Assembly: GCA_029099805.1 (NCBI GenBank)
Contig: JAQXOR010000125.1
Coordinates: 1,475 to 65,474, forward strand
Direction: 5' to 3'
Origin: Lachnospiraceae bacterium
GTDB lineage: Bacteria > Bacillota > Clostridia > Lachnospirales > Lachnospiraceae
DNA length: 64,000 nucleotides
The stretch's first letter is position 1; every line of letters begins with the position of its first letter. Under the pieces are notes generated by a model. It was not told where the DNA came from and made no database searches. It worked only from the letters and a program-made list of their open reading frames with translations. Position numbers and translations under genes: made by a program. Positions 52,845 to 61,672 of the stretch are shown here, one piece after another.

Positions 52845-53858
52845 TCAAAGCCTTGCAAGAATTTCCTCACGGTATGCATCAATCATATCCTCTTCCGTAA
52901 ATATGCTATTATCCTTTATGTAGCAGTCCTCGCATATTTCCGGCGAACACAACTCCAACTGCTCTTGGAGAAGTCTCTTTCTTTCTTCACTGTTCCACAT
53001 CTGTACCAAAGAAGATTCCATCACATTTCCCAAAGACTTTGGATAGAGTAACTGTGTACACGGGTATACCTCCCCGCCCGGAGTTACAAACATTGTATGG
53101 AACACTACCGGACAGCACCTTTGTTTCGGAAAAATAGAACCGTACTTATTTTGCGTCATGGACTGTATCTGCTGTCTTGAATACTCGGTATCCTTCCAAA
53201 TCGGAACAATCCGTTCCACAAATGCTCGGTCCGCAATCGGAAGAAACCTTTCATAAAATGCTTTCTCTTCCCCTGACTCCAATGCCGCATCCGCTATTTT
53301 AATGTGCAGCTTCGTATTCCTTTTTTTCTCATAGAAAAGCGAAAGCATCTCATAAAGACGGTCGACATCAACTGCAATACCGCACACCTGCTCATATTTT
53401 TCTGAAGTCATTCCCTGCAGAGACACGACTACACGGTCTATTTCCGAATCCACAAGCTCTGACACATACATTTCATCCAAAAGAGAGGCATTGGTATGGA
53501 GGGATACTCTGTCGGCAACTCCATTCTTCTTTATATACCGTACCATATCCGGAATTCGCCGGTTGCACAGTGGCTCTCCGTGCCCGGATAAAGAAATCTG
53601 TTTTACCGGCTCTTCAAACGCTTTCATCTGTTCTATCGCACGTACAAAGGTATCCCACTCCATTAAATTATTCTTTTTTGCATACCCCCAGACAGACTTA
53701 TCTTTGTCTGCACGAAAACAGTAGCTACACCTAAAATTGCATACCTCACTGCTGTCCAACAAAACATTAAACGGCACCTTTAACGGTAAGATATCACCCA
53801 GTCTCTGTCTGTTTTCATCAAAAGACGGCTTAATTCGACTTGTATCCAGCTTTTTCAT
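52845..53858 (-). CDS. radical SAM protein with a SPASM/twitch-like C-terminal Cys cluster
   Basis: CNFRCSYC (CxxxCxxC), SLSGHGEP, C-terminal CCPVVFHTMFVTPGGEVYPC and CSPEICEDC. Confidence 0.8.
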   Translation of the reverse strand: MKKLDTSRIKPSFDENRQRLGDILPLKVPFNVLLDSSEVCNFRCSYCFRADKDKSVWGYAKKNNLMEWDTFVRAIEQMKAFEEPVKQISLSGHGEPLCNRRIPDMVRYIKKNGVADRVSLHTNASLLDEMYVSELVDSEIDRVVVSLQGMTSEKYEQVCGIAVDVDRLYEMLSLFYEKKRNTKLHIKIADAALESGEEKAFYERFLPIADRAFVERIVPIWKDTEYSRQQIQSMTQNKYGSIFPKQRCCPVVFHTMFVTPGGEVYPCTQLLYPKSLGNVMESSLVQMWNSEERKRLLQEQLELCSPEICEDCYIKDNSIFTEEDMIDAYREEILARL

Positions 53859-53874
53859 ACCATATGCACCTTTC

Positions 53875-54984
53875 CTACGGAATCAAATAGCACACCGTTT
53901 CTGTCTGAGTATCGCTATAATGTCTGAGATACACTTTATAGTCCGGTATCAGGCTTTTACAAAAGAACGGAATTTCCAGAATATCCTCCTGCTTATGATA
54001 AACACATACCGCAATACCGGGCCTGTTCTTCTTAATCCACTCAGTTCCGCCCCGTAATGCCGCCATCTCAGCCCCTTCTATATCAAGCTTCAACAGTGCA
54101 TTAGAAATCGGCTGCTTTTCGAAATAGGTATCCAACTTACATACCTCAAACGAGTTTTCTTCTTTATGGTTTTCTCCGAAAACTCCGTTTTCAATTGTCT
54201 GCATTACCCCAAGGGCCTGTGCGACCTGAATTCTTCCGTCACAGTCGGAAGCTGCCTTCTTAACCAAAACAATATTGTCATACTCTTTCAGGTTTTCCTT
54301 TGCCGTCTGATAAATGTTCTCATCCGGCTCAAACCCGTAAATCTCCCGATATCTCCCCTTTGACTCAGTAATAAACTGCAAAATAGTATCCCCTGTATAC
54401 ATTCCCAAATCAATAAAACACTCCACTTTCGTAAAGTCTATCAGAGCTTCGTCAAAATACTGCTTCCTTTCCCTTATCTCCAGCAGGTACTTATGATTTC
54501 TCGTCTGCAAAAAAAGAAGACGGTTTTGCAACACCTTTTTCGAGTAATCATCCGCCAGACATTGATACAACTGTTCTATTTCTTGCATATGTTCCTCATA
54601 ATACCTCATACATTCTTTTTCCCACTGCAGTTGAAATACAACATCATACCACGAAATTTGTTCTGGAGCATACCCGCCCTCTATAATCTGTTCTCTGAGT
54701 TCACGATAATACATTTGCGTTGTGATATAAAAATACGCATCCGGATATTTTCTTTTTACCTCTTCAAAGGAAAGAATATCTAGGTCATTAACTTTTCCGC
54801 CCACCTTACCCGGTGAGTTATCGCAAAATGCCGCCGGACAAATCCCCAGCCCGCGAAAATACTGCAAGTTAAACTCTCTCGTGTTTCCTGCACCGAACAG
54901 AATAACGGGAGCATTCATCTTCTGCATTTTAACAATTTCATCCCGCCATAACTCCGGTTCTTTCAGAATATCATTTACCAGCAT
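53875..54984 (-). CDS. FkbM-family methyltransferase with an N-terminal Rossmann-like domain
   Basis: IYGFEPDENIY and KLDIEGAEMAALRG. The N-terminus is VILFGAGNT...FCDN..GKVGG. Confidence 0.75.
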   Translation of the reverse strand: MLVNDILKEPELWRDEIVKMQKMNAPVILFGAGNTREFNLQYFRGLGICPAAFCDNSPGKVGGKVNDLDILSFEEVKRKYPDAYFYITTQMYYRELREQIIEGGYAPEQISWYDVVFQLQWEKECMRYYEEHMQEIEQLYQCLADDYSKKVLQNRLLFLQTRNHKYLLEIRERKQYFDEALIDFTKVECFIDLGMYTGDTILQFITESKGRYREIYGFEPDENIYQTAKENLKEYDNIVLVKKAASDCDGRIQVAQALGVMQTIENGVFGENHKEENSFEVCKLDTYFEKQPISNALLKLDIEGAEMAALRGGTEWIKKNRPGIAVCVYHKQEDILEIPFFCKSLIPDYKVYLRHYSDTQTETVCYLIP

Positions 54985-54999
54985 AAAAATTCCCTCACA

Positions 55000-59916: not shown

Positions 59917-59966
59917 TTTTACTGCCTCCCTTTTAAGCAATTCCTCTTATCCAAACCTCTTCTCTT

Positions 59967-60905
59967 TCATAGGACAATATACTCCCTCATAAACTCCTTC
60001 TCAAACTCCTCTATATATTCCGACTCATAAAACTCCTCATAATGCTCGGTCAGTTCTTTCTTCACGAACTCCAGCTGCTTTCGACAGGAAACCAGATTGT
60101 TCCTTGAAATCTTATTGCACATGGAAATCATGTATGACCATTCACTGTACTGCGCATAATCCGCTATTTTCGGCAGCTTCTTTGACAAATACTCCGTTCG
60201 CTCTCTGAACGCATCAAAGTATTCATCCAGCTGCTCCGGTGTCAGGAGCAAGTCATTGGTAGTAAATGCAGAATTATTTCCCGGATGCCGCCAGAAACAA
60301 TATTTCGGTACTCCATGTGCTGCTACGCGATTTGCAGATGCAAAGTATTTGTACGTTGCACGGATGTCGTCATACTTTCCTTCCGGAAGAAAACGTATCT
60401 CATCAAAAAGCTCACGTTTCACCAGCTTTGTCGGCATTGCTGCATTACACTTTTTTCGTTTTAACAGCATGACTACCGCTTCCTCCGGTGTCATCACAAG
60501 CTTTTCCTCAAACACACAGTTTGGTAGGAATTCGCCATCCACTTCCTTTGTGGAACCGCATACCGAGATGTCCGCATCTGCTTCCTTGGCCAGTCCGTAC
60601 AAAAACTCCAGCATATCGGGCTCTGCCGTATCGTCATCATCAATAAAGGTGATGTACTCTCCTCCTGCCACGTCCAGTCCCGCATTTCTTCCTGCACCAA
60701 TCGTACTCTTTGGGAGATGGAGCACCCGGATGCGGGCATCCTTCTTCGCGTATTCCTCCGCAATCTCGCCGCTCCGGTCCGTAGAGCCGTTGTCGACAAT
60801 AATGTATTCGAATTCCTTCAATGTCTGGGCTAAGACAGACTCGATTGCCCGTTCTACAAGCGCCTCTCTGTTGTACGTCAGCATAATGACACTGACCTTT
60901 ACCAT
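59967..60905 (-). CDS. GT2 glycosyltransferase
   Basis: VSVIMLTYNRE, IIVDNGSTD and FIDDDD. The ATG at 60905 overlaps the rfbF stop. Confidence 0.85.
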   Translation of the reverse strand: MVKVSVIMLTYNREALVERAIESVLAQTLKEFEYIIVDNGSTDRSGEIAEEYAKKDARIRVLHLPKSTIGAGRNAGLDVAGGEYITFIDDDDTAEPDMLEFLYGLAKEADADISVCGSTKEVDGEFLPNCVFEEKLVMTPEEAVVMLLKRKKCNAAMPTKLVKRELFDEIRFLPEGKYDDIRATYKYFASANRVAAHGVPKYCFWRHPGNNSAFTTNDLLLTPEQLDEYFDAFRERTEYLSKKLPKIADYAQYSEWSYMISMCNKISRNNLVSCRKQLEFVKKELTEHYEEFYESEYIEEFEKEFMREYIVL

Positions 60906-61672
60906 TTCACCCACGGGGCCTCCCCCCTCTCTAACAGTGCCTCAAGATAGTGCTTGTCCCGCTGGGTATCCATACACTGCCAGAATCCGTCATACTTATA
61001 AGCCACCAGCTCTCCCATAGAGGCCAGCGTTTCAAAAGGTTTCCGTTCCAGTATCGTGGAATCCTCCTCTATCATATCAAAAATCTCCGGTCCGAGCACC
61101 ATGAAACCGGCATTAATCCAACCGCCTTCCTCCTTACCCTTCTCCGTGAATTTCTGTATGACCTGGTTTTCTCCGATATCCAGTACACCGAACTTATTTC
61201 CCGGCTGTACCGCCGTAATCGTGGCAATCTTTCCGTGTCCCTTATGAAATTCAACCAGCTTATTGATATCAATATCCGATACACCGTCTCCATAGGTGCA
61301 CAGAAACGGCTCATTCCCGACATAATCCCGCACACGCTTGATACGACCGCCGGTCTGGGTATACAGCCCCGTATCCACCAGCGTCACACGCCACGGCTCC
61401 GCCACGTTGTTATGTACAATCATCTCGTTGTTATGTGCAAAATCAAAGGTAATATCCGAACGGTGCAGATAATAGTCCGCAAAGTATTCCTTTATGATAT
61501 GCCCCTTATAGCCGCAACAAATCACAAACTCATGAAACCCGTAATGGGAATAGCTCTTCATAATATGCCACAAAATCGGCGCATCTCCGATGGCAATCAT
61601 CGGCTTCGGCTTTAAGTGACTTTCTTCACTGATACGGGTTCCGAATCCACCCGCCAATATTACAACCTTCAT
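60899..61672 (-). CDS. rfbF: glucose-1-phosphate cytidylyltransferase
   Basis: MKVVILAGGFGTRISEESHLKPKPM...ILWHIMK..., about 257 aa, typical RfbF. Confidence 0.9.
   Translation of the reverse strand: MKVVILAGGFGTRISEESHLKPKPMIAIGDAPILWHIMKSYSHYGFHEFVICCGYKGHIIKEYFADYYLHRSDITFDFAHNNEMIVHNNVAEPWRVTLVDTGLYTQTGGRIKRVRDYVGNEPFLCTYGDGVSDIDINKLVEFHKGHGKIATITAVQPGNKFGVLDIGENQVIQKFTEKGKEEGGWINAGFMVLGPEIFDMIEEDSTILERKPFETLASMGELVAYKYDGFWQCMDTQRDKHYLEALLERGEAPWVKW

Follow-up and report, generated by a model that had tools for sequence, protein, structure and literature searches.

A Dlt-like adenylation enzyme and carrier protein pair in a putative flagellin glycosylation island of a Lachnospiraceae bacterium

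Flagellin glycans decorated with amino acids are known from Clostridia: the type A glycan of Clostridium difficile is GlcNAc-phospho-N-methyl-threonine (GlcNAc, N-acetylglucosamine), and that of C. botulinum contains N-methyl-glutamyl legionaminic acid. The flagellins of Lachnospiraceae are dominant gut antigens (antibodies of the CBir1 and Fla-X type occur in Crohn's disease) and ligands of TLR5, and, to our knowledge, almost nothing has been established about their glycans. Amino acids are also put on other glycoconjugates with the aid of an adenylation enzyme and a carrier protein; in the AlmEFG system, the transferase AlmG is a membrane LpxL-type acyltransferase. In Firmicutes, teichoic acids are D-alanylated by DltABCD, and the MBOAT-SGNH paradigm serves as the reference here (PMC12148441). 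Genes for an acyl carrier protein and an AMP-dependent synthetase are held by flagellin glycosylation islands of Aeromonas group II and Enterobacteriaceae (PMC7874193, PMC4875605). The subject of this work is a stretch of 64,000 nucleotides, below called the window, from a gut Lachnospiraceae bacterium (assembly GCA_029099805.1, contig JAQXOR010000125.1, positions 1,475 to 65,474), in which nine genes located directly upstream of the flagellin gene fliC encode, among others, a stand-alone amino-acid adenylation enzyme, an 82-residue carrier protein and a 408-residue protein, here named U408.

We incline, with some reserve, to the view that these genes constitute a cytoplasmic flagellin O-glycosylation island with Dlt-like, carrier-borne aminoacyl tailoring of a hexose-based glycan. 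A preliminary description of this DNA had proposed a module of this kind, and the proposal gained support from matches to hidden Markov models (HMMs), the pocket of the adenylation domain, the carrier serine, the repeated linkage to flagellar genes and the relationship of one glycosyltransferase to GmaR, while the glycan, the amino acid and the linkage between them we infer. The genes of the island, the presumed acceptor and the gene following it are given below.

60899 to 61684, minus strand: rfbF, glucose-1-phosphate cytidylyltransferase, making CDP-glucose (TIGR02623 equivalog, 389 bits vs cutoff 300)
59967 to 60914 (alternative start 60905), minus strand: GT2a, glycosyltransferase of 315 amino acids (PF00535, 129 bits)
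58690 to 59916, minus strand: U408, protein of 408 amino acids, candidate aminoacyl transferase (without Pfam or NCBIfam match)
58275 to 58709, minus strand: VOC/glyoxalase-fold protein (PF13669 Glyoxalase_4, 57 bits)
57951 to 58199, minus strand: predicted carrier protein of 82 amino acids with an LDSMG motif (PF00550, 21.2 bits vs cutoff 20.8)
56406 to 57941, minus strand: stand-alone amino-acid adenylation enzyme of 511 amino acids (PF00501, 186 bits; TIGR01733, 301 bits vs cutoff 317)
55000 to 56409, minus strand: GT2b, glycosyltransferase of 469 amino acids with a helical C-terminal region (PF00535, 87 bits)
53875 to 54984, minus strand: FkbM-family methyltransferase (PF05050, 42 bits; TIGR01444, 58 bits)
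52845 to 53858, minus strand: radical SAM enzyme with a SPASM/Twitch-type C-terminal domain (PF04055, 67 bits; PF13186, 47 bits)
50941 to 52569, minus strand: fliC, flagellin of 542 amino acids, presumed acceptor (Flagellin_N, 156 bits; Flagellin_C, 104 bits)
47773 to 50136, minus strand: GT2-TPR protein, likely a flagellin-directed initiating glycosyltransferase similar to GmaR (PF00535, 65 bits, and a weak TPR match)

The list of open reading frames (ORFs) and the HMM scans with Pfam and NCBIfam confirmed nine co-directional genes on the minus strand directly upstream of fliC (52845-61684), the identities given to them previously, and the GT2-TPR gene which follows fliC. The overlaps described at 56406-56409, 58690-58700 and 60899-60905 are real as well, and the remaining gaps among the nine genes measure 9-75 nt; on account of this spacing, the genes are likely to form a single operon. 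GT2a overlaps the stop codon of rfbF, the likely start of which is the ATG at 61672, preceded by a GAGGAAG ribosome-binding site; the VOC gene, with a likely start at the ATG at 58700, overlaps the stop of U408, and the start of GT2b overlaps the stop of the adenylation gene by 4 nt (ATGA). In the record of the metagenome-assembled genome to which the window belongs (proteins MDD5900937-44, annotated by PGAP), U408 is listed as 'hypothetical protein' and the carrier as 'acyl carrier protein'.

The adenylation enzyme can be aligned over its full length with adenylation domains of nonribosomal peptide synthetases (NRPS), giving in PDB 195 bits for GrsA vs 147 bits for DltA, and it stays below the cutoffs of the DltA models NF003417 and TIGR01734 (246 vs 476 and 232 vs 560 bits, respectively). 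The marks of an adenylation domain are present: an AMP-binding fold, and D201 and K493 aligned to Asp235 and Lys517. The pocket, whose ten specificity positions were mapped through an alignment with LgrA and the core motifs, gave the code DIFFWALLDK, of the amino-acid type. Because the Asp and Lys that contact the alpha-amino and carboxylate groups are kept, the substrate is predicted to be an alpha-amino acid, and the bulky residues filling the pocket (I, F, F, W, L, L) point to a small side chain, so that the activated amino acid is probably a small one. The 82-residue protein, the earlier assignment of which as a carrier stands, is predicted to be of the PP-binding type: it passes the PF00550 cutoff, and the serine of its LDS motif, by motif the phosphopantetheine site, is invariant in 30 homologues. 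It matches the DltC, AsbD and AmcB models below their cutoffs (DltC, 30.5 vs 68 bits), which indicates a PP-binding carrier and not an orthologue of DltC. The window holds no phosphopantetheinyl transferase gene.

The 408-residue product, listed in the preliminary description as an unknown, turned out to have a recognizable fold. Searches with its sequence in Pfam, NCBIfam and PDB returned nothing usable, only weak ThiF-type Rossmann noise. When an AlphaFold2 model built from an alignment of 20 homologues (mean pLDDT 86) was compared with PDB using Foldseek, DltD came first (6o93, E 2.9e-5; 6pfx), followed by SGNH esterases and acyltransferases, and a probability of 1.00 was obtained for DltD, Axe2, sialate esterase, TesA (1ivn, 1u8u) and PatB. 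The SGNH/DltD-like domain comprises residues ~140-405, and residues ~35-110 form a PglD_N/VioB-like domain. In a profile search, the N-terminal ~110 residues matched the N-terminal domains of WbpM-like 3nkl (5.6e-5) and of the nucleotide-sugar N-acetyltransferase VioB (1e-3); PglD_N is found above its cutoff in a tandem-fused relative of U408, and the N-terminal domains of U408 and of the FkbM protein are homologous (BLASTP, 2e-7). The earlier statement that no recognisable DltD is encoded here holds at the level of sequence, where PF04914 gives no match, but not at the level of fold.

The invariant residues of U408 are G149-D150-C151, H187, N216 and Q231-H232. Block I of the SGNH pattern is thus GDC, N216 of block III is present, and the DxxH of block V is replaced by E382-x-x-N385. 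A word-based homologue search had found 22 relatives, understating the family; an exhaustive profile search among 1.84 billion representatives brought 120 U408 clusters (50% identity clusters) at E<=1e-30. Alignment of the 120 clusters to the profile demonstrated that the U408 clade has G-D-C, has lost the histidine of block V (E-[L/I/T]-x-N) and bears the invariant Q231-H232 instead, whereas distant relatives (~300-430 aa) have the canonical G-D-S in block I and E-H-L-N in block V. Such a coordinated switch marks these positions as catalytic, and U408 is therefore, as far as alignment and model can tell, a divergent Cys variant of the SGNH fold. Neither the Ser-His-Asp triad of DltD type nor an N-terminal membrane anchor occurs in U408 (the maximal Kyte-Doolittle average over 19 residues is 1.30). 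Two rare fusions were found, one of a U408 homologue with a VOC protein (P0015) and the other of a U408 homologue with a C-terminal PP-binding domain (P0341, 26 bits). On the basis of its modelled fold, we consider U408 a candidate for the missing transferase of the module, a DltD analogue. Tandem paralogues of U408 and head-to-tail fused doubles of ~760-800 aa also exist (L015, 9923-12356; L025, 4818-7236; P0263, P0264 and P0275; numbers with L denote related loci, those with P proteins).

Comparison of related loci revealed that the codes of their adenylation enzymes fall into at least three classes: DIFFWALLDK (window, L001, L011), DNLFLCLDVK (the majority) and DVKIISVCNK. The best single-domain PDB match of the DNLFLCLDVK-type enzymes is DltA. 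The clades of U408 track the adenylation code exactly, but those of the radical SAM enzyme do not, and the radical SAM enzyme of the window groups with loci of all three codes. This suggests that U408 works on the aminoacyl and carrier part and the radical SAM enzyme on a common part of the glycan; the latter would thus modify the shared sugar part and not the amino acid. The flank of the window from VanW to rfbF and GT2a is shared by four loci (L001, L011, L012, L032); RfbF and GT2a of these four loci and of L034 share 82-97% identity with their counterparts in the window, and for RfbF alone the value in syntenic loci is 91-96%. In contrast, identity of U408, the carrier and the adenylation enzyme to those of the window amounts to 84-88% in L001, 52-65% in L011 and 32-39% in L012, L032 and L034. 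The GC content of the window is 31-38% from U408 to GT2b vs 46-48% in the flanks (47-48% for rfbF, GT2a and fliC). The transferase/carrier/adenylation cassette has been replaced at the same chromosomal locus in related species, and these genes appear to behave as an exchangeable cassette, which would change the amino acid decorating the glycan.

Enzymes with these codes occur in other settings, too. On metagenome contigs L007-L010, stand-alone adenylation enzymes ~54% identical to that of the window and bearing the same code, DIFFWALLDK, belong to a very common cassette composed of an acyl carrier protein (ACP), two ketoreductases, an Antibiotic_NAT-like protein, the adenylation enzyme, a second ACP, KAS III, an unknown protein and a metallo-beta-lactamase. 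Cassettes of this type are found in polysaccharide loci, one copy being embedded among the LytR, Bac_transf and DegT genes of a surface-polysaccharide locus, which suggests that the same amino acid is lengthened there by a two-carbon unit and attached in N-linkage to an amino sugar. In L044/L045 (14025-15215), a gene for an Orn/DAP/Arg decarboxylase stands directly after the DVKIISVCNK-type adenylation gene, a hint that the substrate of this cassette is a dibasic or diamino-dicarboxylic amino acid.

When one genome per species was scanned, 28 full-length relatives of U408 came to light, nearly all of them in Lachnospiraceae and other Clostridia, with one gammaproteobacterium and one spirochaete. 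The core set (U408, adenylation enzyme, carrier, radical SAM enzyme, nucleotidyltransferase and GT2) recurs in ~28 species-representative genomes, and such a recurrence is not a matter of chance. Carriers available in culture include Lachnospiraceae bacterium 10-1 (L027), Bacterium 1XD8-76 (L024) and Oceanirhabdus seepicola (L006). In a local phmmer survey, U408 was almost always found beside the adenylation enzyme, the carrier, the radical SAM enzyme, a nucleotidyltransferase of RfbF-like or heptose type, GT2a and FkbM. Co-occurrence with fliC in related genomes, a survey of which the preliminary description had called for, was scored within the 10 kb visible around each related locus. Flagellin lies within this distance in L001, L006/L019, L011, L012, L014, L015, L035 and L037, and at the gammaproteobacterial locus flgJ-flgK-flgL are directly upstream of the module. 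Altogether, no fewer than nine independent loci, distributed over Lachnospiraceae, Clostridiaceae, Vallitalea, other Bacillota and one gammaproteobacterium, have flagellin or flagellar genes next to the module; by chance, adjacency would be expected at roughly a few percent per locus. The GT2-TPR architecture stands beside flagellin in L001, L006, L011, L014, L015, L035 and L037, and five more loci have a GmaR-like GT2-TPR gene without flagellin in view. Glycosylation genes repeatedly linked to flagellar genes across genomes are what defines a flagellin glycosylation island, and this is the pattern observed. In many relatives (L042-L045, L016, L017, L027, L033), genes of GDP-heptose type, coding for a SIS isomerase, a GHMP kinase and a fusion of NTP-transferase and HAD, take the place of rfbF, so that the module is combined there with another nucleotide sugar. 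In these heptose-type loci, the TylF, GT-D and FkbM catalytic domains also occur with a C2185-like_N/PglD_N-like domain fused to them.

Among proteins of solved structure, the catalytic domain of the GT2-TPR protein is closest to GmaR, the Listeria flagellin O-GlcNAc transferase (9e-18), followed by SunS, and GT2b is closest to GalT1, which elongates the protein O-glycan of Fap1 (1e-12). GT2a is kept beside the module in nearly all relatives. GT2b and the GT2-TPR protein share a short C-terminal motif, LPEDEE[IV]K, inside a TPR-like helix (BLASTP, 0.002), which could be a common element for docking on flagellin. The central domain of the fliC product (residues 143-455) contains 40 Thr and 18 Ser. 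A Pfam scan of every large ORF in the window disclosed no pse/leg/neu genes, no CDP-glucose 4,6-dehydratase and no MBOAT, in agreement with what had been said of their absence, and neither a condensation domain nor an LpxL-type enzyme was found in the large-ORF scans of the window. There are no transmembrane segments in any protein of the island and almost no multipass membrane ORFs in the related clusters, which fits glycosylation of a protein in the cytoplasm.

Three enzymes of the island could add further changes to the product. The VOC protein scores 56 bits, below the cutoff of 115, with the methylmalonyl-CoA-epimerase model TIGR03081, so that it is a relative by VOC fold only; in PDB it matches 2qh0/3hdp (1e-27) and human methylmalonyl-CoA epimerase (3e-9), and it is absent from most related clusters. 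The radical SAM enzyme has the CX3CX2C motif (C40, C44, C47), and its further invariant cysteines are C159, C249, C267, C309 and C312 only. With no others conserved, it probably contains one auxiliary cluster and not a full seven-cysteine SPASM; the earlier radical SAM/SPASM label is upheld by CX3CX2C and by PF13186 (47 bits), but not by the seven-Cys motif, which is not conserved. Its AlphaFold2 model (pLDDT 82) has as fold neighbours SuiB, DesII, CteB, BtrN, SkfB, anSME, MoaA, BlsE, viperin and EpeE, with similar E-values. An attempt to deduce its role from the structure was abandoned as undiscriminating, the neighbours being both peptide-modifying (SuiB, CteB, EpeE) and sugar- or nucleotide-modifying (DesII, BtrN, BlsE, viperin). 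A radical SAM partner (P0248) is present on 120 metagenome contigs, and its gene belongs to a cluster of this type. In L001 (13502-14380) and L005 (12755-13573), but not in the window, the adenylation gene is directly followed by another, small radical SAM gene (272-292 aa, without SPASM).

The pathway that we propose would begin with the synthesis of CDP-glucose by RfbF. A hexose-based glycan would be built on Ser or Thr residues of flagellin by the GmaR-like GT2-TPR protein and the two other GT2 enzymes. In parallel, the adenylation enzyme would activate, at the expense of ATP, an alpha-amino acid, probably a small one, and load it as a thioester onto the 82-residue carrier. The aminoacyl group may then move from the carrier to Cys151 of U408 by trans-thioesterification, and U408 would hand it over to a hydroxyl group of a sugar, which may be the nucleotide sugar or belong to the glycan already bound to flagellin, thus forming an ester. 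In this way, U408 would do the job of DltD without DltB. Since the whole pathway would proceed in the cytoplasm, with no membrane to cross, no DltB or other MBOAT should be needed; of the Dlt-like parts previously reported as missing, DltB is indeed absent, as such a pathway predicts, but a candidate DltD analogue is present in the form of U408. A methyl group would be added by the FkbM enzyme, the shared sugar part, and not the amino acid, would be modified by the radical SAM enzyme, and it might be speculated that the VOC protein epimerises the carrier-bound thioester.

Several observations weigh against this scheme. The likeness of U408 to DltD is at the level of fold only, with TM-scores of 0.33-0.38 against DltD and up to 0.64 (target-normalised) against small SGNH esterases; PF04914, the DltD family, does not match U408 and matches weakly (E ~0.006) only 2 of 20 family members. 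A few members of the U408 family have Thr, Gly or Ala at the position of the nucleophile. The mixture of peptide- and sugar-modifying enzymes among the fold neighbours of the radical SAM enzyme counts here as well. Neither DIFFWALLDK nor DNLFLCLDVK nor DVKIISVCNK had a match in the literature searched, so that the amino acid is not nameable from the code; we know of no textbook code equal to any of the three. Finally, about half of the related loci, including that of Paenibacillus elgii, have no flagellin within the visible 10 kb.

Hydrolysis in place of transfer could be the reaction catalysed by U408, because SGNH proteins include thioesterases such as TesA. U408 would then be a type-II thioesterase, a proofreading enzyme or an esterase, and the amino acid would be released free or attached by another enzyme. 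Acyl-CoA thioesterase I/TesA (1ivn, 1u8u) and many esterases are indeed among its fold matches; however, the best of these matches is a transferase, DltD, the PglD_N/VioB-like N-terminal domain is typical of nucleotide-sugar enzymes, and nothing else that might serve as the transferase is conserved along with the adenylation enzyme and the carrier, nor did scans of the window reveal a condensation domain, an MBOAT or an LpxL-type enzyme which could take over this step. A change from Ser to Cys should also favour thioester exchange over hydrolysis, as may be judged from SyrC and CmaE, which are Cys-dependent aminoacyl shuttles. We consider a hydrolytic role quite unlikely. Somewhat less improbable, though still unlikely, is that the radical SAM, VOC and FkbM enzymes convert the amino acid, while it sits on the carrier, into a non-proteinogenic acyl group, which U408 attaches to the glycan only afterwards. 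All three enzymes are soluble and probably co-transcribed. In P0015, VOC and U408 are parts of one polypeptide, and the VOC protein has a relative, methylmalonyl-CoA epimerase, that works at a position adjacent to a thioester. The substrates of SPASM enzymes are frequently tethered or peptidic, and SuiB, CteB and EpeE appear among the fold matches; the additional small radical SAM gene of L001 and L005, placed right behind the adenylation gene, also agrees with this view. Nevertheless, the phylogeny of the radical SAM enzyme ignores the adenylation code and is a better fit to action on a common sugar part, the FkbM protein has an N-terminal domain of nucleotide-sugar type, and most clusters manage without VOC.

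As to the target, it is conceivable, but in our opinion hardly probable, that the module serves a target different from flagellin (a cell-wall polymer, a small glycosylated natural product or some other glycoprotein) and that its adjacency to fliC is incidental. This would be in line with the loci lacking flagellin in view, with the unrelated genes flanking the P. elgii locus, and with the strong terminator and ~800 bp separating fliC from GT2-TPR. On the other hand, adjacency to flagellar genes occurs in at least nine independent loci, against a few percent per locus roughly expected by chance, a GmaR-like GT2-TPR protein accompanies the module, and there is no flippase, polymerase, phosphoglycosyl transferase, exporter or membrane protein, as well as no condensation or thioesterase domain of NRPS type. 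Two interpretations of the locus were rejected: an NRPS or natural-product cluster, for lack of condensation, thioesterase and export genes, and a surface-polysaccharide locus, for lack of membrane proteins.

Carrier-borne aminoacyl tailoring of a flagellin glycan, the reading preferred here, can be extended to a more specific and more tentative picture, which we put forward as possible and hold with rather less confidence. The island would represent an undescribed cytoplasmic, MBOAT-independent counterpart of Dlt, in which the aminoacyl group is transferred from the carrier to a flagellin sugar by a new Cys-nucleophile branch of SGNH proteins, whose catalytic His has been relocated and whose N-terminal domain is of nucleotide-sugar type. 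Swappable cassettes of at least three codes would give rise to differently aminoacylated flagellins of gut Lachnospiraceae, the VOC protein would be a thioester epimerase, and, on the CDP-hexose, radical SAM chemistry would stand in for the usual dehydratase reaction.

Two signals recognized around fliC accompany this gene arrangement.

52760 to 52787, minus strand: sigma-D/sigma-28-like promoter of fliC, TAAA-N16-ACCGATAT, read from the sequence
50869 to 50902, minus strand: intrinsic terminator after fliC, with a 13-bp stem and 9 GC pairs

The promoter was matched, by eye only, to the sigma-D consensus TAAA-N15-GCCGATAT. A scan of the window for sigma-70 promoters was at the level of shuffled sequence (31 found vs 32 expected), and Rfam and tRNA scans of the window yielded nothing for the island. 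The neighbours of the island are VanW and MazF-like genes at one end, and a DUF368/VCA0040-like gene together with a Znu ABC transporter at the other. An ORF for a PemK/MazF-like toxin (62085-62396, plus strand), situated between VanW and the island, is overlapped on the opposite strand by an 81-residue ORF of no known family (61992-62237, minus strand), and the two could be a toxin-antitoxin remnant at the island border. The gap between fliC and GT2-TPR is unusually long (~800 bp, 50137-50940), contains a 95-residue ORF (50482-50769, plus strand) without a significant family match, and may reflect a past recombination; the flagellin genes of Oceanirhabdus (L006) are adjoined by a DUF4351 ORF and IS66 fragments. 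A FliD-like (flagellar cap) ORF is located at 297-1709 (plus strand), 50 kb from fliC, and flagellar genes are therefore scattered in this genome. A T-box leader (22770-23013, minus strand, 119 bits), unrelated to the island, precedes an ORF with AIR-synthase-related domains (21549-22721).

If the proposed function is true, the island shows how a commensal puts an amino acid on its flagellin and varies this decoration by exchange of a cassette, which would be a plausible driver of antigenic diversity and of phage or immune evasion. U408 would supply the missing transferase of the module and define a new, Cys-type branch of the SGNH fold, and Dlt-like chemistry would prove workable without an MBOAT partner when no membrane is crossed. 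The soluble trio of adenylation enzyme, carrier and transferase, with its swappable specificity, would also be of use to glycoengineers. The U408 family is small but real (~120 clusters), and some of its members are common in metagenomes.

In the literature searched (flagellin glycosylation with adenylation, carrier, radical SAM or Lachnospiraceae), no paper on this module was found, and the described systems resemble it in parts. The clostridial flagellin glycans decorated with amino acids share with it the class Clostridia, an O-glycan (a predicted one in the island) with an amino acid and a methyl group, and an initiating transferase of GT2 type beside fliC; unlike here, their amino acid is attached by a phosphodiester, or by an amide to a nonulosonic acid, and is not known to involve an adenylation and carrier pair, and the window is devoid of nonulosonic-acid genes. 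The combination of a GT2 domain and TPR repeats found in GT2-TPR is that of GmaR from Listeria monocytogenes, which adds a single GlcNAc and doubles as an anti-repressor (PMC9638930). The Gram-negative islands, like that of the window, place a carrier and an adenylate-forming enzyme inside a flagellin glycosylation island (PMC7874193, PMC4875605). Their ligases are of fatty-acyl type (CaiC/LuxE), accompanied by FabG and LuxC, and are interpreted as attaching lipid-like groups to pseudaminic-acid glycans; an amino-acid adenylation domain, an SGNH protein and a radical SAM enzyme are all missing from these systems. Thus, the earlier suggestion that an adenylation-plus-carrier route on flagellin glycans is without precedent has to be narrowed: the pairing of a carrier with an AMP-ligase is known from these islands, but not with an amino-acid adenylation enzyme.

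AlmEFG, which places glycine on the lipid A of Vibrio cholerae (PMC4278540), is alike in that an adenylation enzyme, a carrier and a transferase put a small amino acid on a glycoconjugate without an MBOAT; it differs in its target, lipid A and not a protein glycan, and in that U408 is a soluble protein of predicted SGNH fold. The nearest parallel is DltABCD. In both systems, a stand-alone adenylation enzyme loads, or is predicted to load, a carrier of ~80 residues with an LDS(M/F)G motif, the last transferase is, or would be, a protein of SGNH fold, and DltD is the best structural match of U408. The differences are the lack of DltB, DltX and any membrane step in the island; the absence of a membrane anchor from U408, its PglD_N-like domain, its putative Cys nucleophile in place of Ser and the lost His of block V; an adenylation enzyme closer to NRPS domains than to DltA (195 vs 147 bits); a target which would be a cytoplasmic protein glycan; and the additional radical SAM, methyltransferase and VOC genes. 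As the curated cutoffs for DltA, DltC and DltD are not reached, the island would work like Dlt rather than belong to it.

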